Position numbers and translations under genes: made by a program
Shown: positions 2,115 through 23,131 of the stretch, piece after piece
Layout of the letters: each line of letters starts with the position of its first letter
Position numbering within the stretch: position 1 is the stretch's first letter
The notes under the pieces: generated by a model
What the model was told of the DNA's origin: nothing
What the model saw: the letters and a program-made list of their open reading frames with translations, nothing else
Databases searched by the model: none
Virus record (IMG/VR): IMGVR_UViG_3300029183_000003
Span: 1-59,131 of that record
Length of the DNA: 59,131 nt
Strand: one strand, 5' to 3'
Source: a virus
Taxonomy: Duplodnaviria; Caudoviricetes

Positions 2115-2126
2115 ACCTGTCTCCTC

Positions 2127-2480: not shown

Positions 2481-2524
2481 CGTCTCACCTCCCGCCACGC
2501 CTGCCGTGGCTCGCCGCTGGGCGG

Positions 2525-3508: not shown

Positions 3509-4900
3509 TTATCGCCACCCCGCCATATCCTTTGTGTCTATATCGCAATCTGAGAACTGCATTGTGTCTTTTCTAAAAAATGCATTAACTGTCCCCGGCT
3601 CACCATCTCGATTTTTTGCCAAAATCAAATCAACTACGCCCGGAATATCTGTATCAACGTTGTAATACTCATCGCGGTATATAAACATAATCGCGTCGGC
3701 GTTCTCTTCCCACTTACCCGTATCCCGTAAATCCGACATTTCAGGAACGCGCTGCGCTCTGCTTTCAACTTGGCGGCTCAACTGCAACAAGGCCAAAACC
3801 GGAACACCTAACTGCTTAGGCAGTGCCATCAGCTTGTCAGCCTTGCGACTCGATTCCTCATACGCCTTGCCGTGCTTCTCTTCCTGCACAATGTTCATAT
3901 GATCGATAACCACCATATCAACGCCGTGGCGCAAAGCCGCCCGCTGTGCACGGCTTCTGATCGTTTCCATCGTCAAAAGCGGCGTACAATCAATAAAGAT
4001 CGGCAGTGATTGAAACTCAGTAACAGCTACGGCAACCTGTGATTGTTCATCCTGATTCAGTTGGCCGTCTCTAATCTTCCAATACGGTATGCCTGTCATC
4101 TGCGAGGCCACACGTCCGATGACCTTACGCTCACCCATTTCCAACGAGAACATCAACATATTGTGGCCTTGTCGAGCCAGGTTGAGCATTACGGACAAAG
4201 CCAGCGACGACTTGCCCATCCCCGGACGCCCTGCCAAAAGATAGTTCTGCTCTGGAAGCAAGCCACCCAGTTTTTTATCCAGCGCCCGAATCCCCGTTGA
4301 CAATCCCATCACGCGGTTATCAGAATCGCAGCGGGCTTTTAGGTCGTCTAAAAACGTCCACGAAGCATCGCCAATCGACACTACGCCGCCCTCGTGACCG
4401 TCCGCGTTAATATCCGTCAGCGTTTCCATTGCGCCATTCATCAGCGATGACGTACTTGATTTCTCGCCTGAGCGATCCCAAGCCATTTGCACAATATGCG
4501 TGCCAGCATCAATCATTTGCCGCCTAACGCTGTTCTCTCTAACAATCTCGGCATAGTGCGGCACGTGCATCGACGTTGGCGTATTGTTGATCAGGTCAGT
4601 GATGTATACAGGCCCGCCTAAATCATCCAACCAGCCCAACCGCTCTAATTCGTCCAAAATAACAAGTGTGTCCAACCCTTTACCGCCTCGATACAAGTCG
4701 ATCAAGACCTGAAACACACGTTGATTCTTGTTCAGGAAAAAGTCAGAGGGCTTCAGGTGATCCGCTTCTAGCATCATATCAGGGTCGATTAGCAAGCCGC
4801 CGATGACGGCCATTTCTGCATCCTCGTTATGCGGTGGCAACGCGCCGTCAACAATCGTTTTTGGGTTTTTCGTATCCACAAATCCATTACTCGATAACAT
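3509..4900 (-). CDS. dnaB: Replicative DNA helicase DnaB
   Basis: PPHNEDAEMAVIG N-terminus, Walker A AGRPGMGKS, FSLEM, QLSR, SDLRDTG, KNRDG. Confidence 0.95.
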   Translation of the reverse strand: MLSSNGFVDTKNPKTIVDGALPPHNEDAEMAVIGGLLIDPDMMLEADHLKPSDFFLNKNQRVFQVLIDLYRGGKGLDTLVILDELERLGWLDDLGGPVYITDLINNTPTSMHVPHYAEIVRENSVRRQMIDAGTHIVQMAWDRSGEKSSTSSLMNGAMETLTDINADGHEGGVVSIGDASWTFLDDLKARCDSDNRVMGLSTGIRALDKKLGGLLPEQNYLLAGRPGMGKSSLALSVMLNLARQGHNMLMFSLEMGERKVIGRVASQMTGIPYWKIRDGQLNQDEQSQVAVAVTEFQSLPIFIDCTPLLTMETIRSRAQRAALRHGVDMVVIDHMNIVQEEKHGKAYEESSRKADKLMALPKQLGVPVLALLQLSRQVESRAQRVPEMSDLRDTGKWEENADAIMFIYRDEYYNVDTDIPGVVDLILAKNRDGEPGTVNAFFRKDTMQFSDCDIDTKDMAGWR

Positions 4901-5901
4901 TACGCACCTCCGGCAGCAGCAACGGCCTGCTGGTGTTCTTTGGCTAACTTGACAAGAGCCTCACGTGGAATAGCACGGCGCTCATGGGGGCGGGTTGGGG
5001 AATCGCCAGTAGCCGACGATTCCCCAATAAACTTCAACCAATCCTCCTGAACAACCTGCGGCCAAGCAAATCTCTTGCCATCCTTACGCCCACTAACAAA
5101 CCAAGACAAAAAGGCTTCAACCTGTTCTGGGGTAGCATTTTGTTTTTCAAGATACAAAACTGTATTGCGAATATCGTCACGCTTCCGACTGCCAATTGCA
5201 TCAATATCGTAAGCGCAAATGCCAGCCACAGAATCGGCAAGCAAATTTCTGTAATCGGTCTGTTGTGTGTCTACTACTCTTTGGTTATCTTTGGTATTCT
5301 TTGAGATCATGCGTTTGGCTTTTTCCGAAACGGATTCCGTTTGGCTTTTTCCCGTTTGTATTGCGTTTGGATTAAAGCCATTTGGCTTTTTCCCAATCGG
5401 GTTATTCCCATTTGGCTTTTTCCCAAATGACTTCGGATAGTCATCACTCTCACTCTCTACCAACTGCTTATAATGCTCGACGATGCGTTTGTTGAAATAA
5501 GCCTCGTTAAAGTAGAAGATTGTCTCGTATGTTTTTGTCTGGATGCAGCCCACGAAATACCCGTCAAGCGCGGCGTCCAAGTCAAGCAAATCGTCTTTTT
5601 TTAGACGCTTGCCAATCAGCTTAAACGCGCCTTCGTATTCGTATCCAGTGAAGCCCAGCTCCTCGCACCAACTATCACCCTTCTTGTATTTTTTCATTGC
5701 TTTTTCGGACGTTGGCGGCTTGATAAATTTGTAGAACGGCCCTTTTTCTCTTTTCCAACGGAATCGAATTTGTTGCAACAGAATCGCAGATGTTATTGAT
5801 CCTGTCATATCCTTCCAGCTTGGACGATACTTGATCATCTTGCGGTCTTCGTCCAAAATTTCTTGGGCTATCTGGGTTGTAATTTGGTCGTCGTTACACA
5901 T
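4900..5901 (-). CDS. Phage replication initiator (lambda O-like layout)
   Basis: Directly upstream of dnaB; N-terminal wHTH-like region (AILLQQI...SWCEELGFT); internal iterons. Confidence 0.75.
   Translation of the reverse strand: MCNDDQITTQIAQEILDEDRKMIKYRPSWKDMTGSITSAILLQQIRFRWKREKGPFYKFIKPPTSEKAMKKYKKGDSWCEELGFTGYEYEGAFKLIGKRLKKDDLLDLDAALDGYFVGCIQTKTYETIFYFNEAYFNKRIVEHYKQLVESESDDYPKSFGKKPNGNNPIGKKPNGFNPNAIQTGKSQTESVSEKAKRMISKNTKDNQRVVDTQQTDYRNLLADSVAGICAYDIDAIGSRKRDDIRNTVLYLEKQNATPEQVEAFLSWFVSGRKDGKRFAWPQVVQEDWLKFIGESSATGDSPTRPHERRAIPREALVKLAKEHQQAVAAAGGA
5314..5424. repeat. Iterons of the putative lytic origin: 4 x TTTGGCTTTTTCC
   Basis: Copies at 5314, 5340, 5381 and 5411 inside the initiator gene, next to TCTTTG repeats at about 5278-5303. 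Confidence 0.8.
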
Positions 5902-6562
5902 TGTCGCCCTCTTTCATTACGAATCTATCTTGCCTATAAGCGACAATCGACTTGATGAAATCAATATGATCATTAACTAAGACAAACCATTCGCCTGTGT
6001 ATCTGTAATCTAAAAATATTGTTTGTAAATGTCTTTCGGCCTGAGCCATATTACCAGCACAAAAGCTATGAATAATATCGACTCGCCCCACTTGCCTCGC
6101 TCGTTTTTCTACATCACGCGCCAAACCAATCTTGTAGAATCCTGCATTGTCCTTGCAACCGAAAAGGTAAATATAACCCCAAACCTCATCTCTTGGGTTT
6201 ACAGCCTTTAATGGCTTAGTATCTGGACTATCAGGGAATATGCGAGGCTGCTTAACTGTCTTGACCTGCGGTTGAACCGGATCATACCGCTTCTTCAAAG
6301 CCTCGCTATTGTAGTCGGCTATCTCTTCGTCTGATACGCAATCGTAGAACTGCTGGAACTCTGTCATAAGTTCGTCGAATGCGGCACGTGTAGGTATAAA
6401 CCCATTATGAATCGGGAATAACGTTTGGGAATCCACCTCATAGCCCACATTCAAAATATCCCAAGGATAATCTTTGTCTGGCTTGGGGGCTTGAAGCGAC
6501 TCCTTAAGCAGGGGGACATCTAAGCCGGTGAACCGATGCATATATCTAACAGTGCCCATCAC
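5894..6562 (-). CDS. T5orf172/GIY-YIG-like domain protein
   Basis: GYIYLF...YKIGLARDVEKR...AERHLQ...GEWF. Confidence 0.8.
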   Translation of the reverse strand: MMGTVRYMHRFTGLDVPLLKESLQAPKPDKDYPWDILNVGYEVDSQTLFPIHNGFIPTRAAFDELMTEFQQFYDCVSDEEIADYNSEALKKRYDPVQPQVKTVKQPRIFPDSPDTKPLKAVNPRDEVWGYIYLFGCKDNAGFYKIGLARDVEKRARQVGRVDIIHSFCAGNMAQAERHLQTIFLDYRYTGEWFVLVNDHIDFIKSIVAYRQDRFVMKEGDNV

Positions 6563-6777
6563 GCCCCCTCCCCAGCCCCGCCCTCGGCGGCTTGCTGCGC
6601 TACCACTCGGCCAATTTCCATCCGCTGCGTCGCGTTCTCAAACACCTCTCTGATGCCATCATTCAGATATTTTCGGATTTCATCGGGGACGGAATCGCAC
6701 TGATACCAGCCGCCGTCCATCTTGCCGTCTGGATACTCAATAGTTACACGTAATTTCTTGACATTTCTATCGTCCAT
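6559..6777 (-). CDS. Hypothetical protein (start MDDRNV)
   Basis: GGAGG RBS upstream. The longer track ORF is a shadow of the Gly repeat. Confidence 0.6.
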   Translation of the reverse strand: MDDRNVKKLRVTIEYPDGKMDGGWYQCDSVPDEIRKYLNDGIREVFENATQRMEIGRVVAQQAAEGGAGEGA

Positions 6778-6859
6778 CTGTATACTACCTCCTGTATAGT
6801 TTGAATTTGAATTACCTCTTGGGTGAGCCACTGTTGCAAGCAGTGGCTTTTTGTTTTGC

Positions 6860-7060
6860 CTAGCCATCGCCATAGCCATAGCCATAGCCAGAGCCATCGC
6901 CATAGCCATAGCCAGAGCCATCGCCATAGCCATAGCCAGAGCCATCGCCATAGCCATAGCCATCGCCATAGCCAGAGCCAGAGCCATAGCCAGAGCCATC
7001 GCCAGAGCCATCGCCATAGCCAGAGCCATCGCCATAGCCATCAATCAATGTGCTGTCCAT
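6860..7060 (-). CDS. Gly-rich (GYG/GDG/GSG)n repeat protein
   Basis: GGC alternates with TAT/GAT/TCT codons; overlaps the upstream gene. Confidence 0.7.
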   Translation of the reverse strand: MDSTLIDGYGDGSGYGDGSGDGSGYGSGSGYGDGYGYGDGSGYGYGDGSGYGYGDGSGYGYGYGDG

Positions 7061-7332
7061 TCCGGCACCCCTTGAATAGAGTCTTTCGCTTCATCAGTAC
7101 ATTCAATAATCTCAATTGCTTCGGTCAAATCAATACTCGGTACTGCTACAGGGAATTTACACTGATTTGGCTTTGATGTTCCTCGAACCGCCATTTCACT
7201 AAGCGATGCTGCACCGTCCCAATACCATAAACGACGAGCGTTTTTAAGTGTAACCTCTTTTCCGTTTCGAGTTTCTAATTGGCCTGCGAAAACACCTGCT
7301 GAATACGTTCGTACAATTACATAATCTGACAT
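7045..7332 (-). CDS. Conserved phage protein (DUF6948-like)
   Basis: VIVRTYSAGVFAG...LKNARRLWYWDGAASLSEMA; AAGGAG RBS. Confidence 0.75.
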   Translation of the reverse strand: MSDYVIVRTYSAGVFAGQLETRNGKEVTLKNARRLWYWDGAASLSEMAVRGTSKPNQCKFPVAVPSIDLTEAIEIIECTDEAKDSIQGVPEWTAH

Positions 7333-7359
7333 TTGTTTAGCTCCTTTCAGCTAAATAAT

Positions 7360-7545
7360 TTAAAACGCAAAAATCCCGTTCTCCATTGCGGGTTGCGAAA
7401 CCATTACCTTCGGAGCACGACTTTCGTCTTGCCAAACAGGTGCAATAAAGAACGGGACTCTAACGCACAAATTATAGGATTGTGAAACTACAGGCAATAA
7501 AAAACCGTGCCTAAAAAAGAAAGGTTTCGCACCTGTAATCATACC
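7360..7545 (-). promoter_or_regulatory. Promoter and structured leader with terminator (switch A)
   Basis: TGG-TATGAT -10 (7543-7538). The 5' segment ACAGGTGCGAAACC is complementary to the loop of terminator hairpin 7373-7458. Confidence 0.65.
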
Positions 7546-7580
7546 ACAACCCCTCGCATTCATCAAGTCACGCTTCGTAA

Positions 7581-8027
7581 TCACCACGTTCTCACTTGCT
7601 CCGCTAAATCTCGTAACGAGTACACAATATCAACATTTGGGCGTGCAAGACCCGTTTGGATTTCGACATCTTGACGGCGGCTATAATTCGGGTCAACGCC
7701 TACAAATATTGGCATAGCGGTCTCCGATTGCGCCCCCAATTCATACAAAACGATAGGACAAAGCGTTTGCGGTGGGAACCAGAACAGTATTGCATCAACT
7801 AGCCGCAGGTGATTGTATTCCCACGTAATTTGCTCTTTGGCGGCATTGGGATCATCAATCGGAAAATTCTTTCGACGTGGATTAACGAGTGTTAGATCAG
7901 TGTCGCTCAACATTTGGCAGATTGCTGATTGCCAATCCGGGCATCCTGTAATTCCCCCCGCCAAAAATATGGCATTTCCCGGCCACTGCTTTTCGTCATA
8001 GATATGTGGTGCTTCTATGTAGACCAT
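7581..8027 (-). CDS. Nucleoside 2-deoxyribosyltransferase-like protein
   Basis: IFLAGGITGCPDWQ, NPRR, EQITWE, LYELG. Confidence 0.85.
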   Translation of the reverse strand: MVYIEAPHIYDEKQWPGNAIFLAGGITGCPDWQSAICQMLSDTDLTLVNPRRKNFPIDDPNAAKEQITWEYNHLRLVDAILFWFPPQTLCPIVLYELGAQSETAMPIFVGVDPNYSRRQDVEIQTGLARPNVDIVYSLRDLAEQVRTW

Positions 8028-8048
8028 CTACCCCTCGCATTCATCAAG

Positions 8049-8462
8049 TCACGCTCCTGATTCGTCTTCATCTAGCCATCCAAATATCGAGGTCTTTGGA
8101 TTGAATGTTCCGCTGTCAATCTGCCTTCTGAAATACTCAATCATATCAATCGTATCCTGCCTCTGCGTGTCTTGATCTTCCTCTTTGAGGATTACAAACC
8201 TTTCAAGCTCACGCTTAATCCAGTCAACATCATTGATGTGAACGATCAGGCGTGACGTACTTGACCACGGCGGCGTATACTTGAACACCTGTCCTTTCAG
8301 CATATGCATTTGTGTCGTGGTCAAATACCAGGTCTCTTTGTTTTCATCGACGATTGCTTTAACACGTGCGTAAGTCTCAATGAGTTTATCTATGGTTAGA
8401 TTGTTCGTGCTATTATCGCCAGAAGGCGCTGCCGTCGATCCGTATCCGCTAAATATGTTCAT
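8049..8462 (-). CDS. Hypothetical protein
   Basis: GAGGGG RBS; contiguous with neighbours. Confidence 0.6.
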   Translation of the reverse strand: MNIFSGYGSTAAPSGDNSTNNLTIDKLIETYARVKAIVDENKETWYLTTTQMHMLKGQVFKYTPPWSSTSRLIVHINDVDWIKRELERFVILKEEDQDTQRQDTIDMIEYFRRQIDSGTFNPKTSIFGWLDEDESGA

Positions 8463-8711
8463 CTACCCCTCGCTCCTGCCGCTGCCCTCGGCGGCTTGCA
8501 TCCGCTCCGCCACTGCCGCCAGCCACTTGGCAACGGCGGCGATTTCGGCTGCGCCTGACAGAGATGTGACCATAAGTGAGCGAGGTGTACCATTCTCTAT
8601 AATTCTCGATTCGATATACACAAGTCCGCTATCTGTTAATGCGAACTTTCGCTCAATGCCGCCGTCTTTGAGTATGATCTTATCGTCGCTGCGGGTGATT
8701 TGTGATTTCAT
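8463..8711 (-). CDS. Hypothetical protein
   Basis: GAGGGAGG RBS; start overlaps the upstream stop. Confidence 0.6.
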   Translation of the reverse strand: MKSQITRSDDKIILKDGGIERKFALTDSGLVYIESRIIENGTPRSLMVTSLSGAAEIAAVAKWLAAVAERMQAAEGSGRSEG

Positions 8712-9439
8712 TAGCTTGCCCTCCCTCGAATAGCCTCGCCTATATCCTGTCCGTCAATCTCGTTGCCAATCACATCCCATCCCAGCATTGGCCTACGTGC
8801 AAATAACTCAACCCGTGGCACGTTGCCATACAGCCGCTCAATGCGCTGATGAACCTCATCTGGCTTGCGGCTATGCTCGCTACGTGGCGCGATAACCAAC
8901 TGAGGTACGCTGTTATCGCAACGTCGTAGCCCCTTGCCTCGCGTTGCCAGCAAGCACATTTCTGGATTCGCCCTGGTATGGTATCCAAGGCCGAAGTGAA
9001 AGCCCGCACCGCTAGGATTTTGCTTGACCCACGTGAAGCCGACTGTTTTATACTCAAAGCCCCACGCCTCGATGACGCTGAATGCCTCTTGTAGTTTTGG
9101 ATCAGTGACCCACATAAACAGAATCGCGTTCTTTGCCGCTATATCAGCTACCGGCAGGGCGGCGATGTCTTCGGTGTTCATTACCGGATATGGGCTGCGA
9201 CCATTGCGCCGTGCCCATTTTTCGTCGCGCTTGGCTTGCTCGGACATAGACCAGTTGGCGTAGCGCCAAGGAGGGTCGCAAGCGATAACTGAGTAGCGCC
9301 CTGGTTCGATACGGGTTGCGTTTAGGCTACTGTCAGCCCATTGCTGGTGCTTCGGCGGCATCGTGTATACTGCGGTCATACAGCACCGCCTAATGTATTC
9401 AGTTGTCGAGATTGGGGATTGACGCAGAGATAGCGCCAT
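8711..9439 (-). CDS. MT-A70 family N6-adenine methyltransferase (start may be about 9379)
   Basis: DPPW, LFMWVT, WGFEYKT...WVK, EHSRKP, ELFARR. Confidence 0.92.
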   Translation of the reverse strand: MALSLRQSPISTTEYIRRCCMTAVYTMPPKHQQWADSSLNATRIEPGRYSVIACDPPWRYANWSMSEQAKRDEKWARRNGRSPYPVMNTEDIAALPVADIAAKNAILFMWVTDPKLQEAFSVIEAWGFEYKTVGFTWVKQNPSGAGFHFGLGYHTRANPEMCLLATRGKGLRRCDNSVPQLVIAPRSEHSRKPDEVHQRIERLYGNVPRVELFARRPMLGWDVIGNEIDGQDIGEAIRGRAS

Positions 9440-9524
9440 GGTAAAATCTTACGCAGAAATGTACGCATAAAGTATTTCTCCAAGCAACGCCTGAGCCGCC
9501 AAGCAAACGGGCGTTGTTTTCGGT

Positions 9525-9665
9525 TTAAAAAAGCGAAGGCCACTGGGAAAACTGTTGCTGAGACAGTTACGAGATTATCGTCCAGTGGCCTTCTATATTG
9601 AATTATAACTAAATTATTTAAAACAAAAAAATCTCGAAACGTCTCAGCATAAGAATCATAGCACA
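9525..9665 (-). promoter_or_regulatory. Promoter and structured leader with terminator (switch B)
   Basis: TGC-TATGAT (9663-9655). The 5' segment TGCTGAGACGTTTCGAGATT is complementary to the loop of hairpin 9535-9593, which is followed by a U-tract. Confidence 0.65.
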
Positions 9666-9843
9666 TTTCGACTATGATTGCAACAGATAATATGTTAAAA
9701 TTTTGCGTTGCGCGAATCGAGTTACAGATCATTGGTTAGTTGCCTTTGTTATGCTCGTACTTCTGCATTCTCGGTCTGAACACCTTCAGAGAGCTAACGT
9801 GTTTTAACTGTTGGGCGAATGGCGATAATCTCCATTTAATAAT

Positions 9844-9872
9844 TTGACACGTATTGCGTATTGCGGTACAAT
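9844..9872 (+). promoter_or_regulatory. Sigma70 promoter, leaderless, with operator-like repeats
   Basis: TTGACA-17-TACAAT with ATG 6 nt downstream; GTATTGC x2 and inverted GTATTG...CAATAC. Confidence 0.8.
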
Positions 9873-9878
9873 ACTTAT

Positions 9879-10040
9879 ATGAAACAAGCAACAAGTTTTC
9901 GGCTAAGTAAGGACGCATTGAGTCTGCTAAAGCAACTCTCTCAGGAGCTTGGTATATCACAAACCGCTGTTTTAGAGATGCTAATACGCCAGAGAGCCAA
10001 GCAAGAAGGATTGAGAGTTGATCGTAACCAAGACGCTTAA
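9879..10040 (+). CDS. Ribbon-helix-helix protein (53 aa, not in ORF track)
   Basis: MKQATSFRLSKDALSLLKQLSQELGISQTAVLEMLIRQRA: beta strand plus two helices with a G-x-S turn. Confidence 0.85.
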   Translation: MKQATSFRLSKDALSLLKQLSQELGISQTAVLEMLIRQRAKQEGLRVDRNQDA

Positions 10041-11187
10041 ATTCAGACTGTATCGTAGTAAGCAAGCCAAAAGCATCAATCAACAGATTGATATATCTGG
10101 TATTATTTACAATCACTGTATTAGCCTTCACAAGCGATACTACGCCCAGTATGGTCGCCATCTTTCTAAGTATCTCCTCCAAAAACATATTGCCCGACTT
10201 AAAAAGCGTTCTGAGTATGCGTTCTGGAAGTTGGTTGACGCTCAGGCTATTCAAAACATCGTAGAGCGTATTCAAGCAGGCTATGAATTGTTTTTCGAGA
10301 ACTTGAAGCGCGACATCAAAACCAACCCGCCTAAATTCAAGAAAGTTAAGCGGTATAAGTCCTTCACGCTGAAACAAACAAGCTGGAAACTGCTTGAAGG
10401 TAACAAGATCAAACTTCGCGGCAAGGTGTACAAGTTCGTTAAACACCGCGAGATTGAAGGCAAGATAAAGACGGTTACAGTCAAGCGGGACAACCTCGGC
10501 AACTTGTGGCTTTGCCTTGCGGTTAAACAAGAAATCGAGCCATCCGAATCCACGACGGGTAAAAGCGCGGGATTCGACTTTAGCTTGAAAACATTCCTTG
10601 TTTCTTCCGATGGTGAGGTCATCCAGTCGCCGGAGTTTCTCAAACGACATTCGAACCAACTTGCTAAAGCGCAACGTATCCTGAGTCGTAAGGCCAAAGG
10701 CTCCAAGGCGTGGAATCGGGCTAGATTGAACGTGGCTCGAATTCACAAGCGTATCACTGACAAACGTCGTGATTGGTTTTTCAAGTTGGCTCACCAGCTG
10801 ACCGATGAATACGATTACCTTTTCTTTGAAACCCTCAACCTCAAAGGGATGCAACGCATATGGGGGCGCAAGGTCAGCGACTTGGCTTTTAGCGACTTCC
10901 TGCTGATATTGAGATGGGTTGCCAAACTCAAAGGTAAGGTCGTTCATTTTATTGATCGTTGGTTTCCTTCAACCAAAACCTGCTCTTGTTGCGGTTACAT
11001 CAACCGCAATCTCACACTTAATGATCGCTGGTGGCGTTGTCCTGACTGTCAGGTTGTACACGACAGAGATAGTAACGCCGCTGTGAACATCTGGACTGAG
11101 GGCATTCAGTCCTTGGGCTTAGGGGATGTAAGACGCTCGCTTGCGAGTGCCGCCCTGCACGAAGCCCTAGAAGCCCACGCGCTTTAG
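10018..11187 (+). CDS. tnpB: TnpB RNA-guided endonuclease (TnpB-1)
   Basis: KFRLY N-terminus, RuvC-I GFDFSLK, RuvC-II FFETLN, CSCCG/CPDC zinc ribbon, RuvC-III DRDSNAAVNI. Confidence 0.95.
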   Translation: MIVTKTLKFRLYRSKQAKSINQQIDISGIIYNHCISLHKRYYAQYGRHLSKYLLQKHIARLKKRSEYAFWKLVDAQAIQNIVERIQAGYELFFENLKRDIKTNPPKFKKVKRYKSFTLKQTSWKLLEGNKIKLRGKVYKFVKHREIEGKIKTVTVKRDNLGNLWLCLAVKQEIEPSESTTGKSAGFDFSLKTFLVSSDGEVIQSPEFLKRHSNQLAKAQRILSRKAKGSKAWNRARLNVARIHKRITDKRRDWFFKLAHQLTDEYDYLFFETLNLKGMQRIWGRKVSDLAFSDFLLILRWVAKLKGKVVHFIDRWFPSTKTCSCCGYINRNLTLNDRWWRCPDCQVVHDRDSNAAVNIWTEGIQSLGLGDVRRSLASAALHEALEAHAL

Positions 11188-11224
11188 CCGTGGGAGTATG
11201 TCACTTCCCTCCCAGCGCCGCACG
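11050..11224 (+). ncRNA. Predicted omegaRNA of TnpB-1; guide about 11205-11224 (TTCCCTCCCAGCGCCGCACG)
   Basis: Right-end hairpin ending TCAC; the guide is flanking DNA by established IS605 biology. 5' boundary approximate. Confidence 0.65.
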
Positions 11225-11449
11225 CACGGCGGCCCGCGCTGCAACTTCCTCGTCGGCATCTAACACGCGGCGGTTGATTTGCTCCGCCAGCGTCTTGAGC
11301 GCCTCGGTTGTCGCGGCGTCTCTGCCAGCGATCCAGGCCGCGTATACGTTGTGTACCGTTAGCGCCTGGTCGGTGTTGTGGCGTTGGCTGTGTTGGTTCC
11401 ACCATTCGAGGAATTGGTTATCCATCATAATCCTCCGGCGCATCGCCAA
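11201..11449 (-). CDS. Hypothetical protein whose stop codon is supplied by the IS right end
   Basis: Its TGA is the reverse complement of TCA in the terminal TCAC. Confidence 0.6.
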   Translation of the reverse strand: MAMRRRIMMDNQFLEWWNQHSQRHNTDQALTVHNVYAAWIAGRDAATTEALKTLAEQINRRVLDADEEVAARAAVRAALGGK

Positions 11450-11712
11450 CTATATGCTTCTTCCACCATTTAGACCGCTTACCAATCGGCTGATCAAGCC
11501 ACAAGGCGATAATAAGGGCAACGCCTATCATAACTATTGCAATGCAAAAAAGCGTAATTATTACGACAAGTGCGTCATACATTCGTTGTACTCCTCAACT
11601 GTATACTCCCTAAACCCGCGCCTGTAGTGCCACCAGGCGTGCGCCCACAGGATGCCCACCGCCAGAATCGTAGCTACGTTGAACACGCCGCGCCACAGGC
11701 GGCGGATGGCTA

Positions 11713-11949
11713 TCATTCCACACCCCCAGCACGCGGCTTGAATATCACCGTCGCTGCGTCTCGCATTGCGGATTCCAATGTGCGTCCGTAGCCTAATGCT
11801 ATCCTGTTATCCTTGATCATCTTGCAGCCATATAGTGGCTGGCCGTCGCCATCGAACGGCTTGAAGAAATGCCAATCCCAGCCGCAGTGACCGATTTGCA
11901 ATAACAGGTTTATGTCGATATGGATTGGGGTGAATGGCTGATTGGTCAT
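11713..11949 (-). CDS. Hypothetical protein
   Basis: ATGA overlap with the VRR-NUC gene. Confidence 0.6.
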   Translation of the reverse strand: MTNQPFTPIHIDINLLLQIGHCGWDWHFFKPFDGDGQPLYGCKMIKDNRIALGYGRTLESAMRDAATVIFKPRAGGVE

Positions 11950-12311
11950 ACTGTCGCCTCGTATCCTAGATATGCTAGGATGCCGTTAGCGGCATCCTGC
12001 CAGTCCCAATAGACCTGATGGCAATAGCCCTGGTCAGTTAGTTGCGATTTCCACACCCGCTGATGAGCGGTGAGCAAATTTTTACCGTACTTCATCTCAA
12101 TCCACAACCCGTGATAATTGTTTCTAGCCACTGGCAAGAATATATCGGGAACCCCGGCGCGAACACCCTCCTGCTTGAGCCTGACAGCTGTACGCTTATG
12201 TCGGTGGCCGCCATTTGGGATGGCAAACATCAGAGACAACTCGCAGTACATGTCGCATTGCATCGCCGCCCAGTTGAACAGCGCTTTCTGGTGTTCGTGT
12301 TCGCTACTCAT
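11946..12311 (-). CDS. VRR-NUC domain nuclease
   Basis: SEHEHQ...FAIPNGG...GVRAGVPDIFL...IEMK...Q..W. Confidence 0.9.
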   Translation of the reverse strand: MSSEHEHQKALFNWAAMQCDMYCELSLMFAIPNGGHRHKRTAVRLKQEGVRAGVPDIFLPVARNNYHGLWIEMKYGKNLLTAHQRVWKSQLTDQGYCHQVYWDWQDAANGILAYLGYEATV

Positions 12312-12598
12312 CTTATCGCCACACACTCCCCATTCTCGAAATCCCATACCAAGCGGCCTGCGCCCTCGTAGCGCCCCGCCTGATTCCAACAGTCAACTAT
12401 CCGCGCCATCGTTTTGCCTTGTGGTGTATCGTCATCTCTGAAATGCGCGCTACCAATGGCAATACCAAACACGGTTAGCACGATAACCAACACCAACGTC
12501 ACCAACGCCGAATCACGAGGCGTTGGCATCGTTGTAGCGAACAGTGTGGATCGCTGCGGTTCGGCCTCGCGTACATCCAGTGTCTTGAGTGCCATCAC
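12308..12598 (-). CDS. Single-TM membrane protein
   Basis: LVTLVLVIVLTVFGIAIG helix; overlaps neighbours. Confidence 0.6.
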   Translation of the reverse strand: MMALKTLDVREAEPQRSTLFATTMPTPRDSALVTLVLVIVLTVFGIAIGSAHFRDDDTPQGKTMARIVDCWNQAGRYEGAGRLVWDFENGECVAIR

Positions 12599-12789
12599 GC
12601 CGACCTCAATTCCTTGACCACCTCGCGCATCAACAGATTGTCTTCAACATCGGCGGCGATGTTTGCCAACTCGCCTCGCGCCTGGTTGATTTCGCTGGGC
12701 TGCGAGCGTAACTTATCGCGTTGAAGGCGCAAGAAATCCGTCAAAATGTCGAGCCAGCTTTCGTTTTCGTCATTAACCGTTACTATCAT
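12595..12789 (-). CDS. Hypothetical protein
   Basis: AGGTG RBS. Confidence 0.6.
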   Translation of the reverse strand: MIVTVNDENESWLDILTDFLRLQRDKLRSQPSEINQARGELANIAADVEDNLLMREVVKELRSA

Positions 12790-12813
12790 ATTTCACCTAC
12801 TTCAAAAACTAAT

Positions 12814-12912
12814 TCGGCGGCGGAGCATCTTCGAGGTGCTACAGGAGATATTCCGAGGCTTGTTGCGGGGACAGTGGGATTAAGAATGTTCCTTGCTCCG
12901 CCCCGCCGCCGA
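12814..12912 (-). ncRNA. Hairpin RNA H3 with C/U-rich loop
   Basis: Stem TCGGCGGCGG..GGAGCA / TGCTCCGCCGCCGA; loop contains AUCUCCUGU. Confidence 0.5.
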
Positions 12913-12963
12913 TAATCGTGAGCGCCGTATGCTAGGTACAAGCAGTGTGGGACATACGGCTAT

Positions 12964-13116
12964 TGGGAACGCCCGGATTCGCACCAGGATCGGAAGGTAA
13001 ATACTAAGTCGTGGTCTCTCGAACCGTTCAGCCTTAACTCAAGAAACCTTCAGAGAACATCTATATTTGATTGTGTCCGATGCGGCCTGCGCTGCCGATA
13101 GCTCGCCGCCGTTCCC
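12964..13116 (-). ncRNA. tRNA-like element T2 (153 nt; about 80-nt insert replaces the anticodon arm)
   Basis: Acceptor GGGAACG/CGTTCCC-A, T-arm CCTGG-TGCGAAT-CCGGG, D-like stem GCGGC/GCCGC, stem TCGGA/TCCGA. Confidence 0.7.
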
Positions 13117-13124
13117 ATATAAGG

Positions 13125-13205
13125 CGGCATCTGTGGCAAGAGAGAAAAACATACGGTTTACCAACATACAAAAGGAGGGAGATCAAGTGGTTGCCACAGA
13201 TGCCG
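13125..13205 (-). ncRNA. Hairpin RNA H1 with anti-Shine-Dalgarno loop
   Basis: 15-bp perfect stem CGGCATCTGTGGCAA/TTGCCACAGATGCCG; loop contains CUCCCUCCUUUU. Confidence 0.6.
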
Positions 13206-13207
13206 AG

Positions 13208-13303
13208 TAAGAGTGTTCGGAATCGAACCGAATAACCGTGCCAGTCAAGAGCCTATGTTCCACTGGCTATGTTGTATCTAACACGCGCACCAGCGCCACT
13301 CTT
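13208..13303 (-). ncRNA. tRNA-like element T1 (non-canonical anticodon arm, long extra arm)
   Basis: Acceptor AAGAGTG/CACTCTT, T-arm TTCGG-TTCGATT-CCGAA, D-arm GCGC-TGGT-GCGC, arm GCCAGT/ACTGGC. Confidence 0.7.
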
Positions 13304-13320
13304 GCACATTTGCAATAACG

Positions 13321-13548
13321 CTATCCTGCATCGTACAGCCTATGTCCATCGTTGTCCTCACGCGGCTGCACGTTCTCAGGTAGCGAGTCATCCCATTTGA
13401 ATCTGGGTTGAAAGTCGCCATCGCCATCCGAATAAAGCGTAACACGACGGCTACTACCCATCCGCCCTAAGCGTTCCATATAACGCAATGTTGCAAGAAA
13501 ATGTGGAACCCAACGTTCTTTCATTTCGCATTCAATTGTAAATTTCAC
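13321..13548 (-). CDS. Conserved phage hypothetical protein (GTG start)
   Basis: AGGAG RBS; MKERWVPHFL...GSSR...YSDGDGDFQP. Confidence 0.7.
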   Translation of the reverse strand: MKFTIECEMKERWVPHFLATLRYMERLGRMGSSRRVTLYSDGDGDFQPRFKWDDSLPENVQPREDNDGHRLYDAG

Positions 13549-13613
13549 AGCATTCTCCTGGTGTAAGTTTTTTGCCTGTACCGCCTCGCTGTCGGTTGCG
13601 AGGCCGCCCGCTC

Positions 13614-15029
13614 CTATAGATATGCCCAAATATGGACATCAGGTGATTCGCTCACTGTTGATGTCTCGTTGCCGAGTGTGCAACTAGTGTCTTGGTTGAG
13701 CGGTCCCAACCGTTTGAATTGCTCGGTACGTTCTAGTAGAACTTTCTTGACCTTTTTATACGGCGTGTATAATCCGATCTCAGGATCATTCAGTCGAGCC
13801 AAGATATTCCGAGCCGCATTTGTATCAGCATCCAATACCACCCCATCAAATGTGGTGAAACGGTCTCCGTTACGCTCGCCCAAAAGGATGCCGTAACGCG
13901 AGTCCGTTTGTGAGGTATAAGCTGCATTTACAATGGAAAGAGACGCACCGCGTCTCTGAGATACCGAATCTAGCGCCTCTGCCATCAACCCTTTGACCCA
14001 AACGGACAACCTGCGCTTTTGGTCTTTACGATATTTCTTCTTTGACTTGATTGGGGCAGTTAAATCTTCCACAACAACCGTACTGGCTTTGTCCACCACG
14101 CTATGGGTAGCCTTATAGACCTTATCTCGCACATTCTGCGCATGACGCTTCTTACGGGCGTCTAGCTTTTTACGACCAAGATTGTTGCGTTCTATTTTTT
14201 TTCGTTTGTGTGGTGGTGATTTTTTGGCAATAGCGTGGAGTTTGCCACGCCGTTGGTATTTCACCTTGAGGTAATCTGATTCAGCACTAAGCATCTTGCC
14301 TAAACCCTCGCCGTGAGCCTTGCCATCTGAATCGGTAAAAGTTTCGGTATAGCCCTTATCTACCCCAACAGTATCTTCACCGCAAGGCTTGATGCTGCAA
14401 ACATCGACTGAATCGACGCTGTAATGAACTTCTACGCGGTTGTCTTTGAGGATAAGGCGTAACGTACCAGAAGGAGCGACCGTAGTATTAAGCGGAATGG
14501 CGATGCGCTTACCACGCTCCAAGCTCATCACCTTGATCCACGCCTTACCACCTAACTCAAAGACGTTGTACAGTTCAGGATCAAGGACTATCTGGTTATC
14601 GACTTGGGTATGCCCGTGTTTGAAATGCTTACGCATCTGACGACGTAGGTAGCTATCTTCTAGCCACTTATCAGACTTAAGCAAGGTATACAGTCGCTTG
14701 CGCTCTTCGTCATCCTCGGCGCGATTCCGTATGGCCTTACGTACCTGAAACTTCGCGGCTTCTCGATATGCCTTAATGTCACTGGCGACATCCAATACTG
14801 TTGTCGCCCACAGCTTGTATGGCAAGCTGTCAGTTCTCTGCGGTTTAAGTTCTGCGCGAATATCACGGGCGGATTTACCCACGCCTTGTACTGATCCGTA
14901 CCTATGCCATACATCGCGGCGTATTGGCGCAAGCATTGTGGCTATCTGTCCAAGTTGGGTGTACTTCGATTCGGTTAGATTCTTGCTATACGCTATCCGC
15001 GTAACTTTCGCGGTCTTACTTCGTGACAT
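13614..15029 (-). CDS. tnpB: Long TnpB-like RuvC nuclease (TnpB-2) without zinc-ribbon cysteines
   Basis: RuvC-I GVDKG, RuvC-II VVEDL, AAYTSQ, RuvC-III DADTNAARNI. Confidence 0.88.
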   Translation of the reverse strand: MSRSKTAKVTRIAYSKNLTESKYTQLGQIATMLAPIRRDVWHRYGSVQGVGKSARDIRAELKPQRTDSLPYKLWATTVLDVASDIKAYREAAKFQVRKAIRNRAEDDEERKRLYTLLKSDKWLEDSYLRRQMRKHFKHGHTQVDNQIVLDPELYNVFELGGKAWIKVMSLERGKRIAIPLNTTVAPSGTLRLILKDNRVEVHYSVDSVDVCSIKPCGEDTVGVDKGYTETFTDSDGKAHGEGLGKMLSAESDYLKVKYQRRGKLHAIAKKSPPHKRKKIERNNLGRKKLDARKKRHAQNVRDKVYKATHSVVDKASTVVVEDLTAPIKSKKKYRKDQKRRLSVWVKGLMAEALDSVSQRRGASLSIVNAAYTSQTDSRYGILLGERNGDRFTTFDGVVLDADTNAARNILARLNDPEIGLYTPYKKVKKVLLERTEQFKRLGPLNQDTSCTLGNETSTVSESPDVHIWAYL

Positions 15030-15050
15030 TAAAAAGCCCCTGTGAACTTA

Positions 15051-15260
15051 CTAGCCGTCGTTTTCTTTGCAGTTGCCCATTGCTTCATCCTCCGTTGGCG
15101 GCATTGCAAACAATCCGATATGAACAGCACGGGATAACGCAGCACGCACAAAGACGGGCCTGTCTAAATTGTGCCGCTTTGCGGCTTGCTTGACCGCTTC
15201 GTCCAACATTTCGGGCAATCTAATTGTCATTACCGCTTTCATATTTTCTCTGTCTTCCAT
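15051..15260 (-). CDS. Ribbon-helix-helix protein
   Basis: AVMTIRLPEMLDEAVKQAAKRHNLDRPVFVRAAL; AGGAGG RBS. Confidence 0.8.
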   Translation of the reverse strand: MEDRENMKAVMTIRLPEMLDEAVKQAAKRHNLDRPVFVRAALSRAVHIGLFAMPPTEDEAMGNCKENDG

Positions 15261-15315
15261 TCGTTGCCGCCCTCCTGAATTTATATGAATTCTCTAATTA
15301 TTTCTAACTTTTTAC

Positions 15316-15442
15316 TTGACAACTCATAGACTCTGGTGAATAATATCAAACGATCTCATGCGAAAGTACCGTGGTACTATTTGACGTTACCTAGATATAA
15401 CCCTAAAATAAGTTGACAGCCGAGTCTCTGCTCGGTTATTAT
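15316..15442 (+). promoter_or_regulatory. Three tandem sigma70-like promoters
   Basis: TTGACA-17-AATAAT (15316), TTGACG-17-TAAAAT (15381), TTGACA-18-TATTAT (15413). Confidence 0.6.
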
Positions 15443-15518
15443 GAAAGTGGCGGTTCGTTCTTTTTAGCACAAAGGCCATACGGTTTGAATGCAAAAGGCT
15501 TATCGCTCTTTTCCTTTG

Positions 15519-15564
15519 GATGATCCACAATTACTCTTGCCGGAGGGGTGGGTCATCCTTTTTT
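15519..15564 (+). terminator. Intrinsic terminator
   Basis: GGATGATCCAC...GTGGGTCATCC followed by TTTTTT. Confidence 0.7.
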
Positions 15565-15611
15565 ATTGGGGATAAAGAGGGTCTCTTTATCTGGTATCTC
15601 GACTAAAATTT

Positions 15612-15674
15612 AAAACAAAAATCGCCATACAACGCCAGTAAACCACATCAGTGGTCAATTAGCGTTGTATGGCG
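15612..15674 (-). terminator. Intrinsic terminator of a minus-strand leader/sRNA
   Basis: TCGCCATACAACGC...GCGTTGTATGGCGA followed by TTTTTGTTTT. Confidence 0.7.
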
Positions 15675-15796
15675 AGGATGCGAAGGAATCGCTGTAACAT
15701 CCGTTTGGGCTGGGTCGCTGGACGCCCCGGCGTCGTGGTCTGCCTCGTATGGTGATCCTGCGTAGTACTAATAATCATAGCAAATAAATCCACGAT

Positions 15797-16297
15797 TTAC
15801 AAGTTCCATTTACTTAAGGTTTTGCGATACAACCTTTTGCTTTCACGCTTCAACAACTTGATTTGCTCAGACAATATAAAATCATCAAACCTATCATATC
15901 GAGCCTCGCGTTGCAGTAACCCGTGATGCCGTCGTGCTTCCCTAATTTCAATCGCTTTGGCGCATTTTCCCACTTGAGCAACGCACATTTTCTCTTGCAC
16001 TTCTAGCAACCCACCGATGACTCTGCCACTGGCGATAAAGAAATCGCCGTTCTCTGGCTTATCATTCACCTCTACGACATATGGTAATTTGACTGTATAG
16101 ACCTCACCGCGCTTGGCTATAATATCAAATGACCAGCCGTTCGATTCACGTGCTGGTTCTGTGATAATGTAACCCTCAAGAATTTCGACGAAAGTATCAC
16201 GAAGAAGGTCTAATTTTGTCGGTGATATTTGCCCCGTTACCATTCTGTATATGTTCGCTCGTTCGACAGTAATGTCGCCCCCGGCGATGTTTTGCAC
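15797..16297 (-). CDS. Hypothetical protein
   Basis: 166-aa ORF with GGAAGG upstream. Confidence 0.6.
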   Translation of the reverse strand: MQNIAGGDITVERANIYRMVTGQISPTKLDLLRDTFVEILEGYIITEPARESNGWSFDIIAKRGEVYTVKLPYVVEVNDKPENGDFFIASGRVIGGLLEVQEKMCVAQVGKCAKAIEIREARRHHGLLQREARYDRFDDFILSEQIKLLKRESKRLYRKTLSKWNL

Positions 16298-16509
16298 TTG
16301 TCTGAAACAACCTTCCCGTAAATAGAATACGGTTTAATCAGGACTTTCGGTATAGGAAATCGGTCATGGTGATGAAAGTGAGAGATTGATGAGAGAAGAG
16401 TGAGAGACTGCGAAAAGGCGTTGGTTTTAGTTGGCTCGGTACTCTGACCAATACCGAGAAAGGGGGCAATCTGTATAAATTATAGCACAAAATGTTGCGA
16501 CCCGCAATG

Positions 16510-16734
16510 TCACAAGGCTTTATTTTTAGGACGATAGCGCATAGCAGTCTCACGATCTATTAGCCAGTTGTTTACGCCTGCCGTGGTGCGCCTAGCCTTT
16601 CCTTGCGATAGCCAATAAGTCGAACACATCCTACGAATTGTCTGAGGGCTTACATCGTGAAGGGCAGCAACTTCGCTTCCTGTCATAACCTCGTTAAGAC
16701 AATTGCGAGAATTTGATTTTTCATCTTGCGTCAT
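16510..16734 (-). CDS. HTH DNA-binding protein (excisionase/MerR-like)
   Basis: VMTGSEVAALHDVSPQTIRRMC...WLIDRE. Confidence 0.8.
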   Translation of the reverse strand: MTQDEKSNSRNCLNEVMTGSEVAALHDVSPQTIRRMCSTYWLSQGKARRTTAGVNNWLIDRETAMRYRPKNKAL

Positions 16735-16820
16735 CTCCGCCGCCTCGGTTGTATTGATTTATGGATGGTTTCTTCCCTGCCCCAATTCTACCCCAACCCT
16801 GCCTCCGACGCAACCCCGCC

Positions 16821-17165
16821 TCACGCCTCTTTCGCATTCTCAATCGCTGCAATCGCCGCCAAGCAGCACGCCCAGCGCGGATCAGTCGCGTGCGATCCGA
16901 TGCCCCACGATGGGCCGCTAAACGTGACTTGCCACTGGTAATCATTGTTCGGTGCGGGGCTGTCCTCTGAAAAATGATAGCCCCGCTTTATCATATCCGT
17001 GATCAAGCTCCAACACAGCCGCCAGTCGTCGGTAAACTGCGGCGGCTTTTGCTCAGGTAGCAATGGGTTATCGTAAACCACGGACAAGACGTGTCTATTC
17101 AAATCGTCAGGTTTCATATCGACCTGGCTTTGCCCCGGCCAGTTTCTGCTGTGGGTCGCAATCAT
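16821..17165 (-). CDS. Phage protein (ABA-sandwich/NinX-like)
   Basis: FTDDWRLCWSLI...ACCLAAIAA pattern. Confidence 0.55.
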   Translation of the reverse strand: MIATHSRNWPGQSQVDMKPDDLNRHVLSVVYDNPLLPEQKPPQFTDDWRLCWSLITDMIKRGYHFSEDSPAPNNDYQWQVTFSGPSWGIGSHATDPRWACCLAAIAAIENAKEA

Positions 17166-17180
17166 TATAACATAGATTGA

Positions 17181-17528
17181 TCATTCGTCATCTTTAATTC
17201 TAATTCGCCTAATGATTTCCAATGCCGACTTTAGCCACGCCTTGCCAGCGTAATTGATTTCCATATTAGCCAATTCCATCAGTGCCGCCTCGTTTTGTCC
17301 TACGTCATTGTATTCCCACCGTGCAGAACGCGTCCAGATTATTGCTCTCTCGTCATTAGAACCCTCTGTGTTTATAGCCTCAATTTGATCACCGATCAAT
17401 TGCTCTAGCGTATGAGGGTAGCAAAACATATCGCTTGCGCCGATGCATATTCTGCCCTTGCAATCTGGTGCTTGGCAAACAGGCCAATAGACAGCTGTGT
17501 CTAAGTCAATGCGAACCCAATCGCTCAT
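17181..17528 (-). CDS. Hypothetical Zn-binding protein
   Basis: C-x4-C...FCYPH. Confidence 0.55.
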   Translation of the reverse strand: MSDWVRIDLDTAVYWPVCQAPDCKGRICIGASDMFCYPHTLEQLIGDQIEAINTEGSNDERAIIWTRSARWEYNDVGQNEAALMELANMEINYAGKAWLKSALEIIRRIRIKDDE

Positions 17529-22262: not shown

Positions 22263-22300
22263 CACCCAACTATTGACAAGTATTTATTTGGGTGTACAAT
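22263..22300 (+). promoter_or_regulatory. parA promoter within an inverted repeat
   Basis: TTGACA-16-TACAAT; CACCCAA...TTGGGTG brackets the -35. Confidence 0.6.
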
Positions 22301-22354
22301 GTAAGTAATTATCAATACTCGATTATGTGCGTTGTAAATATCAGGAAGGGCAAT

Positions 22355-23131
22355 ATGACAAAAATTATTACACCAGTATCGCAAAAAGGCGGCGTAGGCA
22401 AAACATCGACCATTCAGAACCTTGCCTCGGTACTGTCAGAGAATCACACTGTATTTTTGATTGATTTTGACCCGCAAGGAAATTTAACGCAGGGTTACGG
22501 TATTGATCCATACGAAGACAATATGCCAACCGTTCTTGATGTTTTGCTTAAGCGAGCGACCTTGGCTGATGTGGCGAAAGTTTTGAATGATAATATGGTT
22601 GTCGCTCCGGCTAATCTTTTGCTGGCTAATGCAGAGCTAAACGTTAATCAGACTGAAGGCAAGGAATGGCACTTGAAGCAAGCGATTGAACCTTTGGTCG
22701 AACGTGTTGATTATATTTTAATCGACGTGCCGCCATCCCTAGGATTCTTGACTACTAACGCTTTGTATTGTTCAACGCATTATTTTATCCCATTGCAACT
22801 ACATCCGTATGCGTTTTATGCGATAGACGGCATCGAGGCGATTGTAGAGACGATGAACGAGCGAACGCATGGTGGCAGGTCTGAACCGATTGAATTTTTA
22901 GGCGCATTGATCACGATGTACGATCCGCGATCAAATCTGGCTAGTTCCATTGAAGAATTGGTTGTCAATCATTTTAACGGCAAGACGTTTGACACTAGGG
23001 TTCCGCAAAACATCAAGGTCGCTGAGGCTACATCAATGGGGGAATCTGTTATCACTTACGAGCCTCAATGCAAGGGCGCTGTTGCATATCGAAATTTTGC
23101 AAATGAGGTTATGGCTCGTGTCAAAAAGTAA
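22355..23131 (+). CDS. parA: ParA/Soj partition ATPase
   Basis: QKGGVGKT, IDFDPQGN, YILIDVPPSLG, TMYD. Confidence 0.95.
   Translation: MTKIITPVSQKGGVGKTSTIQNLASVLSENHTVFLIDFDPQGNLTQGYGIDPYEDNMPTVLDVLLKRATLADVAKVLNDNMVVAPANLLLANAELNVNQTEGKEWHLKQAIEPLVERVDYILIDVPPSLGFLTTNALYCSTHYFIPLQLHPYAFYAIDGIEAIVETMNERTHGGRSEPIEFLGALITMYDPRSNLASSIEELVVNHFNGKTFDTRVPQNIKVAEATSMGESVITYEPQCKGAVAYRNFANEVMARVKK

Follow-up and report, generated by a model that had tools for sequence, protein, structure and literature searches.

What purpose, if any, is served by a stretch of phage DNA that lies within an operon, encodes no credible protein and is made up in good part of sequences shaped like tRNAs? The question is raised by a spacer in the virus record IMGVR_UViG_3300029183_000003 (IMG/VR; Caudoviricetes), a complete record of 59,131 base pairs (bp) that was analyzed in full and is called here the window. 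The spacer covers positions 12790-13320 on the minus strand (531 nucleotides, nt), from the stop codon of a small gene to the ATG at 12789, and the open reading frames (ORFs) on its sense strand span 34-55 amino acids (aa) only, none of them credible. An initial annotation, made from the sequence alone, had described about 500 nt without a sense-strand ORF in a minus-strand operon, composed of two tRNA-like modules (T1 and T2) and three hairpins (H1, H2 and H3). That description agrees with what we find, and all five modules are present where it had placed them (Table 1). Our best explanation, held with moderate confidence, is that T1 and T2 constitute a conserved pair of non-decoding tRNA mimics that would be matured by tRNA-processing enzymes.

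Two tRNA-shaped modules without an anticodon arm

The two modules reproduce the half of a tRNA that includes the acceptor stem and the T-arm. The acceptor of T1 (AAGAGUG/CACUCUU) consists of 7/7 Watson-Crick pairs, and its T-arm (UUCGG-UUCGAUU-CCGAA) directly abuts the 3' acceptor strand. T1 also has a D hairpin of the tRNA-Sec type (GCGC-UGGU-GCGC). In T2 the acceptor (GGGAACG/CGUUCCC) is again paired at 7/7 positions, and the T-arm (CCUGG-UGCGAAU-CCGGG) combines a stem with one G-U pair and the loop UGCGAAU. Both modules have A as discriminator, and neither copy in the window encodes CCA. The initial annotation had attributed to both modules perfect 7-bp acceptors, 5-bp T-arms with 7-nt loops, and D-like arms. 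The acceptors and T-arms stand as described, and so does the D arm of T1, a hairpin with GG in its loop, but that of T2 is weak. The accompanying claim that the two modules have no anticodon loop and no encoded CCA was confirmed.

Table 1. Coordinates of the modules, their homologues and the adjacent genes (window positions unless a locus is named)
Feature	Position	Strand	Description
T1	13303-13208	minus	tRNA-shaped module, 96 nt; acceptor, D hairpin and T-arm, with a 52-nt irregular middle lacking an anticodon loop
T2	13116-12964	minus	tRNA-shaped module, 153 nt; acceptor and T-arm, with a long irregular middle that includes an 11-bp hairpin
H1	13125-13205	minus	hairpin; arms 13191-13205 and 13125-13139, 15/15 complementary; 51-nt loop
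H2	12924-12960	minus	hairpin; 9-bp stem, 21-nt loop; folding z -2.8, 3/200 shuffles as stable
H3	12814-12912	minus	hairpin; 13-bp G+C-rich stem with one bulge, 92% complementary; loop of about 73 nt; folding z -2.7
T1 homologue	L193 6416-6522		tRNA-shaped element
T2 homologue	L193 6524-6626		tRNA-shaped element
TnpB ORF	13614-15029	minus	471 aa; Pfam Cas12f1-like_TNB, 1.2e-7; right end of the element at about 13607
phrog_10928 gene	13321-13557	minus	small gene between the TnpB element and T1; E 5.5e-25; probable start GTG at 13557

A motif in which a 5-bp/7-nt hairpin with the loop T.C.A. is set directly against a 7-bp Watson-Crick acceptor has two matches when both strands of the whole window are searched, and these are T1 and T2. 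In 60 first-order Markov simulations the same motif was encountered 0.05 times on average, with a maximum of one. When the loop constraint is lifted, the window yields six matches against a simulated mean of 3.2. The folding of T1 is also more stable than that of its shuffled versions (z -2.9).

A homologous pair in a second phage lineage

A viral collection was scanned with a pattern taken from T1, consisting of the 12-nt D hairpin, a gap of 35-65 nt and the 11-nt T-loop, and it returned two stretches, in the loci handled here as L193 and L194, whose sequences agree completely across the part that was read. The L194 record is a complete 37.4-kb phage without TnpB. The T1 homologue has a perfect 7-bp acceptor (UCGGGCG/CGCCCGA) that the pattern had not asked for. 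It is followed, again without any such requirement in the pattern, by a homologue of T2, with an acceptor identical to that of T2 (GGGAACG/CGUUCCC) and the T-arm CCAGG-UUCGACU-CCUGG. The T1- and T2-like elements of L193 abut, being 1-2 nt apart, with H1 absent between them, and the sequence and hairpins downstream are unrelated to H2 and H3. A U before the T2 acceptor and GGYGG after it are common to the window and L193. Beyond the pair, the two phages have little in common: tblastx matches only the VRR-NUC gene, and the sequences on either side of the pair show no similarity at the nucleotide level. A Mom-family DNA-modification gene (Pfam PF25680, 1.4e-48) is found at L193 7542-8123, some 900 nt downstream of the pair.

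Between the window and L193, four of the seven pairs in the T1 acceptor are changed on both sides with pairing kept, as are two of the five pairs in the T1 T-stem, and one of the five pairs in the T2 T-stem goes from U-G to A-U. The four acceptor stems are nonetheless perfect (28/28 pairs), and no T-stem has an unpaired position. The L193 elements carry one extra U between T-stem and acceptor, readable as an eighth, G-U pair that would give the 8/5 arrangement of bacterial tRNA-Sec; in the MAFFT alignment this extra nucleotide offsets the acceptor columns of T1. A 5-bp hairpin that abuts the T-arm of T1 shows four further double changes between the lineages and, with two sequences compared, could be the remnant of a variable arm. 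In this comparison of sequences, the acceptor and T parts of T1 and T2, and for T1 the D part too, have been kept by compensatory change across two phage lineages, with the tandem as the conserved unit. Moreover, the invariance of the T2 acceptor, as opposed to the freely covarying acceptor of T1, hints at sequence-specific recognition of T2.

Several observations weigh against a conserved and functional pair. The D-like arm of T2 is weak, with the motif UCGGCA, and its T-loop has a G at the position expected as U55. Folded alone, T2 is not more stable than its shuffles (z +0.86), and the whole spacer (536 nt folded) is not unusually stable either (z -1.3). The middles of the modules are poorly conserved: those of T1 share only AACAnAnCCAG..AAC and CAUA, and the lengths differ between window and L193 both for T1 (52 vs 61 nt) and for T2 (about 120 vs 70 nt). 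No conserved partner protein stands beside the pair, the Mom gene being found in L193 and none in the window. Two independent lineages are too few for a statistical test of covariation, and the compensatory changes could predate the loss of the anticodon arm. Finally, no third lineage with the pair turned up in pattern scans of the viral collection or of 401 bacterial genomes.

The scans behind this last statement approached the pair from several sides. With the T1 14-mer followed by GTTCRA, 58 stretches were retrieved; a T-arm together with a 7/7 acceptor is present in eight of them, namely L193, L194 and six elements of the tRNA(UAU) type discussed below, and in none of the other 50. The 5' motif of T2 retrieved 36 stretches, with a tRNA-shaped continuation only in L193 (35 were checked, the L194 sequence being that of L193); three other stretches have CGTTCCC downstream in apparent coding sequence. 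The full T2 pattern found L193 and L194 only, and the 17-mer of the T2 T-arm matched a single stretch, by chance and in coding sequence. A motif scan over 1.31 Mb of loci gave 50 rows. Apart from L193/L194, these proved on reading to be real tRNAs (L041, L052, L060, L180 and L181) or chance matches within coding sequence. A relaxed tandem scan over 2.2 Mb of loci gave 18, namely the window, L193, L194, three in the tRNA array of L212 and 12 in VRR-NUC loci; three of these 12 were read, and they show nothing typical of a tRNA, being the strand opposite a coding gene.

Among 110 loci of TnpB relatives, blastn similarity is confined to the 3' end of tnpB. In 80 VRR-NUC and two phrog_10928 loci, blastn matched only L191 and L192, inside phrog_10928, with nothing in the spacer, and the motif scan revealed no further pair. 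Cultured phages and plasmids gave no blastn match for the window sequence, and for L193 only T-arm-sized matches to real tRNAs (E about 0.2). In the 401 genomes, all from one bacterial phylum, the D-hairpin/T-loop pattern was matched in 15, and the matches listed all read as G+C-rich coding sequence. No description of anticodon-less tRNA-shaped pairs in phages was found in the literature searched, supplements being outside that search.

Relation to known RNAs and possible roles

T1 and T2 might in principle be decoding tRNAs whose anticodon arm, unconventional or interrupted by an intron, escapes the usual programs. Their acceptor, D and T parts are indeed of tRNA quality, and the tRNA array of a jumbo phage contains uncalled elements that measure 117-137 nt and encode CCA (L198 133-269 and 1657-1773). 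Against this, ARAGORN reports no tRNA or tmRNA gene in the window, and none when introns are allowed at the default threshold; at thresholds of 60-80% it proposes implausible models built on other, mismatched stems, and tmRNA models appear only at 70%, with no tag identified. Rfam detects no family in the spacer at its gathering thresholds, and there is no match to RF00005 (tRNA) at E<=10. The closest approach is a match of T1 (13207-13305) to tRNA-Sec (RF01852), in which cmscan aligns the acceptor, the D arm with its 4-nt loop and the T-arm; at 18.9 bits and E 0.9, it is far from the gathering score of 47. T2 has no Rfam match at E<=10, also when searched alone, and the L193 elements match tRNA-Sec weakly (21.5 and 18.0 bits). 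In none of the four middles read, from the window and L193, is there a 5-6-bp stem with a 7-nt loop, and the window copies encode no CCA. A decoding role is thus quite unlikely. The check by ARAGORN and Rfam that the initial annotation had proposed leaves T1 and T2 as neither ordinary nor intron-containing tRNAs, nor members of a known Rfam family.

Compared class by class, the modules resemble several known RNAs and fit none of them. T1, T2 and the L193 homologues have the 7-bp acceptor and the 5-bp/7-nt T-arm of a canonical tRNA, all fully paired, without an anticodon stem bearing a 7-nt loop or a score above threshold. The extended D stem with a 4-nt loop that is typical of tRNA-Sec is present in T1 and absent from T2, and the combination of at least 47 bits, a UCA anticodon and an 8/5 arrangement is not found in any of the elements (18.9 bits for T1, none for T2, 21.5 and 18.0 for L193). 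With the tRNA-like domain of tmRNA, they share an acceptor and a T-arm, a reduced D region and a long insert, foreign to tRNAs, between the acceptor strands. They differ from tmRNA in that position 3:70 is G-C in both modules, in place of the G3:U70 pair, that no credible tag frame or pseudoknots were found, that ARAGORN calls no tmRNA by default, and that they are only 96 and 153 nt long. The YrlA module of bacterial Y RNAs likewise exemplifies a non-decoding RNA that mimics the elbow and acceptor of tRNA. Y RNAs are not known to have their termini at the acceptor stem. Such RNAs have also been reported from phages (PMC4201824). An identity as Y RNA was considered and rejected, as neither module has an Rfam Y-RNA match and the phage has no Ro60/TROVE gene or TROVE domain.

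The nearest relatives seem to lie among irregular tRNAs of the tRNA-Sec kind. Arrays of tRNA genes in large phages contain the 14-nt D hairpin of T1 as well. L198 and L212 have it in 95-nt genes with a long variable arm and an encoded CCA that ARAGORN calls tRNA-Ile(UAU), the L198 copy reaching 31.4 bits against tRNA-Sec, and L221, L236, L243 and L249 have elements of the same UAU type that ARAGORN does not call. Mukai et al. 2017 (PMC5389517), in the passages dealing with these molecules, describe tRNA-Sec-like allo-tRNAs, among which the UAU group is the most abundant, with stem-destabilizing changes and possible five-stem junctions; six of six allo-tRNA(UAU) variants tested there were inactive in translation, and pseudogenes and 'polycistrons of irregular tRNAs' are mentioned as well. 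A review repeats this account (PMC7609411). T1 and T2 are akin to this class in the D hairpin of T1, with its short stem and 4-nt UGGU loop, in the weak matches to tRNA-Sec and in the tandem arrangement. The class itself includes non-translational members and is linked to mobile elements and phages. Allo-tRNAs, however, keep an anticodon stem-loop and a 12-bp branch in an 8/4 or 9/3 arrangement, with a long variable arm, whereas T1 and T2 show a 7/5 arrangement in the window, their L193 counterparts an 8/5 one that includes a G-U pair, and all of them lack an anticodon loop. Because the 8/4 or 9/3 arrangement and the anticodon arm are missing, we do not count them as allo-tRNAs and treat them as a further, more extreme variant of the irregular kind.

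The large-phage arrays also hold tRNA-shaped elements that default ARAGORN misses (L198 133-269, 1657-1773 and 4443-4528; L212 8653-8741; L229 260-343). They have a perfect acceptor and T-arm, most of them with an encoded CCA. The two of 117 and 137 nt, both in L198, may be further irregular or insert-bearing tRNAs.

This kinship lends some weight to the main rival explanation, namely that T1 and T2 are functionless, decaying remnants of irregular (tRNA-Sec-like or allo-type) phage tRNA genes and hence spacer junk. Decay would account for the missing anticodon loop, for middles that differ in length and are mostly unalignable, for the unremarkable folding of T2 and for the rarity of the family, seen in two lineages after five pattern scans. 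It would also be in keeping with the gradation of related UAU tRNAs, from those called by ARAGORN (L198, L212) to those left uncalled (L221, L236, L243, L249), and with the allo-tRNA(UAU) pseudogenes and inactive members mentioned in PMC5389517. What decay does not readily explain is that 28/28 acceptor pairs and all four T-stems are intact in spite of 4 + 2 + 1 double changes, and that two phages with hardly anything else in common have each retained both members of the tandem. Furthermore, 250-500 nt of dead sequence are seldom kept by phage genomes. We therefore regard decay as possible but unlikely, and should it be correct the finding would be of minor interest.

A pair of non-decoding mimics is favored because the anticodon arm has given way to lineage-specific sequence while the half that faces tRNA-processing enzymes has been kept. 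RNase P and the 3' processing enzymes recognize the acceptor/T-arm domain of tRNA precursors, and the CCA-adding enzyme accepts minihelices. Since T1 and T2 keep the acceptor, the T-arm, a D hairpin with GG and a record of compensatory changes, it is a reasonable inference that they are recognized by RNase P and by 3' processing enzymes. According to this scheme, each module would retain the enzyme-read half of a tRNA, with an acceptor of 7-8 bp, a T-arm and a D hairpin supplying the GG of the elbow, and its anticodon arm would have been replaced by an irregular, lineage-specific rod or loop. The modules would be transcribed within the minus-strand early operon, as part of its transcript; no promoter or terminator lies inside the spacer (a scan of 12300-13900 gave no promoters, and no terminator within the spacer). 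The 5' ends of the acceptor stems would then be cut free by RNase P, trimming after the discriminator would be left to a 3' endonuclease or to exonucleases, and the CCA-adding enzyme would complete the end. The expected products are stable RNAs of about 96 and 153 nt, together with a polycistronic mRNA cut in two. The mature mimics would occupy, or be acted upon by, a host or phage factor that reads the acceptor/elbow half. Possible roles are those of a decoy or sponge, of a carrier that is charged yet takes no part in translation, and of a scaffold stabilizing a variable insert.

Precedents for this scheme exist as working principles rather than as sequence families, and they may apply to T1 and T2. 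In tRNA punctuation, as in mitochondria and in the tRNA cluster of phage T4, the body of a tRNA directs RNase P and 3' processing. Such a body also stabilizes a sequence put in place of its anticodon arm or located between tRNAs. Engineered tRNA-scaffold RNAs are known as well (PMC3753655).

Current thinking regards phage tRNAs as a means of countering host defenses that target tRNAs, and to our knowledge all known examples are decoding tRNAs. The initial annotation had suggested decoys for anticodon nucleases. With no anticodon loop in either module this proposal loses force; the mimics could instead lure factors that read the acceptor, the T-arm or the elbow. If correct, an anticodon-less conserved pair would point to phages putting the tRNA shape to another use, as decoy, carrier or scaffold. 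It would also be a natural counterpart to engineered tRNA scaffolds and would extend the class of tRNA-Sec-like 'irregular tRNAs' to forms without an anticodon arm. More tentatively, and as a conjecture to which we lend limited credence, T1-T2 could be the founding example of phage 'anticodon-less tRNAs'. These would be tRNA-Sec-shaped bodies matured by the host, possibly CCA-tailed or aminoacylated, that never decode and act either as decoys for host immune or toxin enzymes working on the acceptor end or elbow, or as scaffolds displaying a phage-specific insert. The T2 acceptor, invariant where that of T1 covaries freely, would then be an identity element for one particular enzyme.

The hairpins, the neighboring TnpB element and the genomic setting

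The initial annotation had cast T1 and T2 in a subordinate role, as tRNA mimics that punctuate an array and whose cleavage frees stem-protected, anti-Shine-Dalgarno small RNAs (H1 and H3) silencing host mRNAs. Parts of that proposal are sound. H1 is a real and unusual hairpin, with its perfect 15-bp stem, a folding z of -5.0 and 0/200 shuffles that fold as well, and it is among the four perfect inverted repeats of at least 14 bp in the window. The loop of H1 contains CUCCCUCCUUUU, with CUCCCUCC as the string in this loop to which the array explanation points, and H3 is followed by AAUUAGUUUUU and then by the ribosome-binding site of the next gene. The quoted strings are present, with CCUCC at 13178 and CUCCU at 13177 and 12847. 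Both words are rare on the minus strand genome-wide (12 each), so that the spacer is mildly enriched, and 4/47 minus-strand occurrences of CTCC fall in the spacer, which amounts to 0.9% of the sequence, although this enrichment was counted post hoc and compares non-coding with mostly coding sequence. On the other hand, the homologous locus, with T1 and T2 side by side, does not have H1, and H2 and H3 have no sequence counterpart there. Between the loops and the remainder of the phage genome, its own transcripts included, complementarity never exceeds 12 nt. The array was not upheld because H1-H3 are not conserved and this complementarity is lacking; the conserved unit is the T1-T2 pair, with H1 missing and the downstream hairpins unshared in L193/L194, and a release of anti-Shine-Dalgarno RNAs now appears very unlikely. 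On the sequences compared, H1, H2 and H3 are best seen as lineage-specific hairpins outside the conserved unit, and they may be ordinary processing or stabilizing hairpins. H3 is not a canonical terminator, as the terminator scan found none there.

Counted on the two strands of the 59 kb, CCTCC occurs 12 and 29 times and CTCCT 12 and 32 times, and TCCTCC is absent from the minus strand; words of the anti-Shine-Dalgarno type seem to be avoided in the sense transcripts of the phage. The other perfect inverted repeats, of 14-17 bp, are located at 28317-28350, 25743-25805 and 44896-44924. The first of these lies where blocks of plus- and minus-strand genes converge and looks like a bidirectional terminator.

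A neighbor that the initial annotation had not mentioned is a TnpB-type insertion sequence in the early operon (13607-15100, minus strand), and it opens up explanations at the level of DNA or of the transposon, with the region as an omega RNA or right-end extension of the TnpB element, an attP site derived from tRNA fragments, or a replication origin. The region is non-coding and lies downstream of the TnpB gene on the same strand, as an omega RNA would, and attP sites typically correspond to tRNA 3' halves. The limits of the element nevertheless point elsewhere. TnpB relatives are multicopy in one Psychromonas assembly, where the copies cease to resemble one another some 40 nt past the residue aligned to TnpB 461; in 10 multicopy relatives the element ends there. 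Nucleotide similarity between the window and its relatives is limited to 13633-13698, inside the 3' end of tnpB, and in an alignment of nine 3' ends the conserved block stops at about 13607, 7 nt past the stop codon. This block looks omega-RNA-like, in which case the guide would begin at about 13607. T1 starts some 300 nt beyond the element, with the conserved phrog_10928 gene in between, and the pair occurs without TnpB in L193/L194. The stretch from T1 to H3 was for these reasons rejected as a TnpB guide RNA, and it lies outside the omega-RNA-like block and the right end of the insertion sequence. An attP site was likewise discarded, the window containing no integrase or resolvase, nor any tyrosine or serine recombinase, and both acceptor strands being present rather than 3' halves alone. 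An explanation of this DNA-level kind is highly improbable, and the T1-T2 pair is independent of the neighboring insertion sequence.

The TnpB protein itself has the RuvC triad D224, E321 and D402, invariant across seven aligned relatives, and is without the four zinc-finger cysteines kept by more distant relatives (L063, L084). The phrog_10928 gene that separates it from T1 can also be read as an ORF of 102 aa that starts at TTG and overlaps tnpB, the GTG at 13557 being the likelier start. Its homologues take two forms: in L191 (3611-4213) the same domain makes up the C-terminal part of a 200-aa protein, and in L192 (2143-2370) it stands alone, with 75 aa.

The early/replication block to which the spacer belongs consists of minus-strand genes from about 350 to 17,500. 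It encodes a DnaB-like helicase, two DNA methyltransferases, MazG, VRR-NUC and a nucleoside deoxyribosyltransferase-like protein. The helicase shares about 35% identity with its nearest cultured relatives, and a 492-aa ORF at 51533-53011 had no match in the search made with it. A ParA-like partition protein is encoded at 22292-23131 (phrog_164, 2.7e-56) and, taken together with the lack of any detected integrase or resolvase, points to possible maintenance as a plasmid-like prophage. A tandem hexanucleotide array of TAGCCA (plus strand) extends over 6861-7041, with about 30 units and 85-86% matches. The minus-strand ORF 6559-7044 carries this array at its 5' end, and the encoded protein would have a long N-terminal dipeptide repeat.

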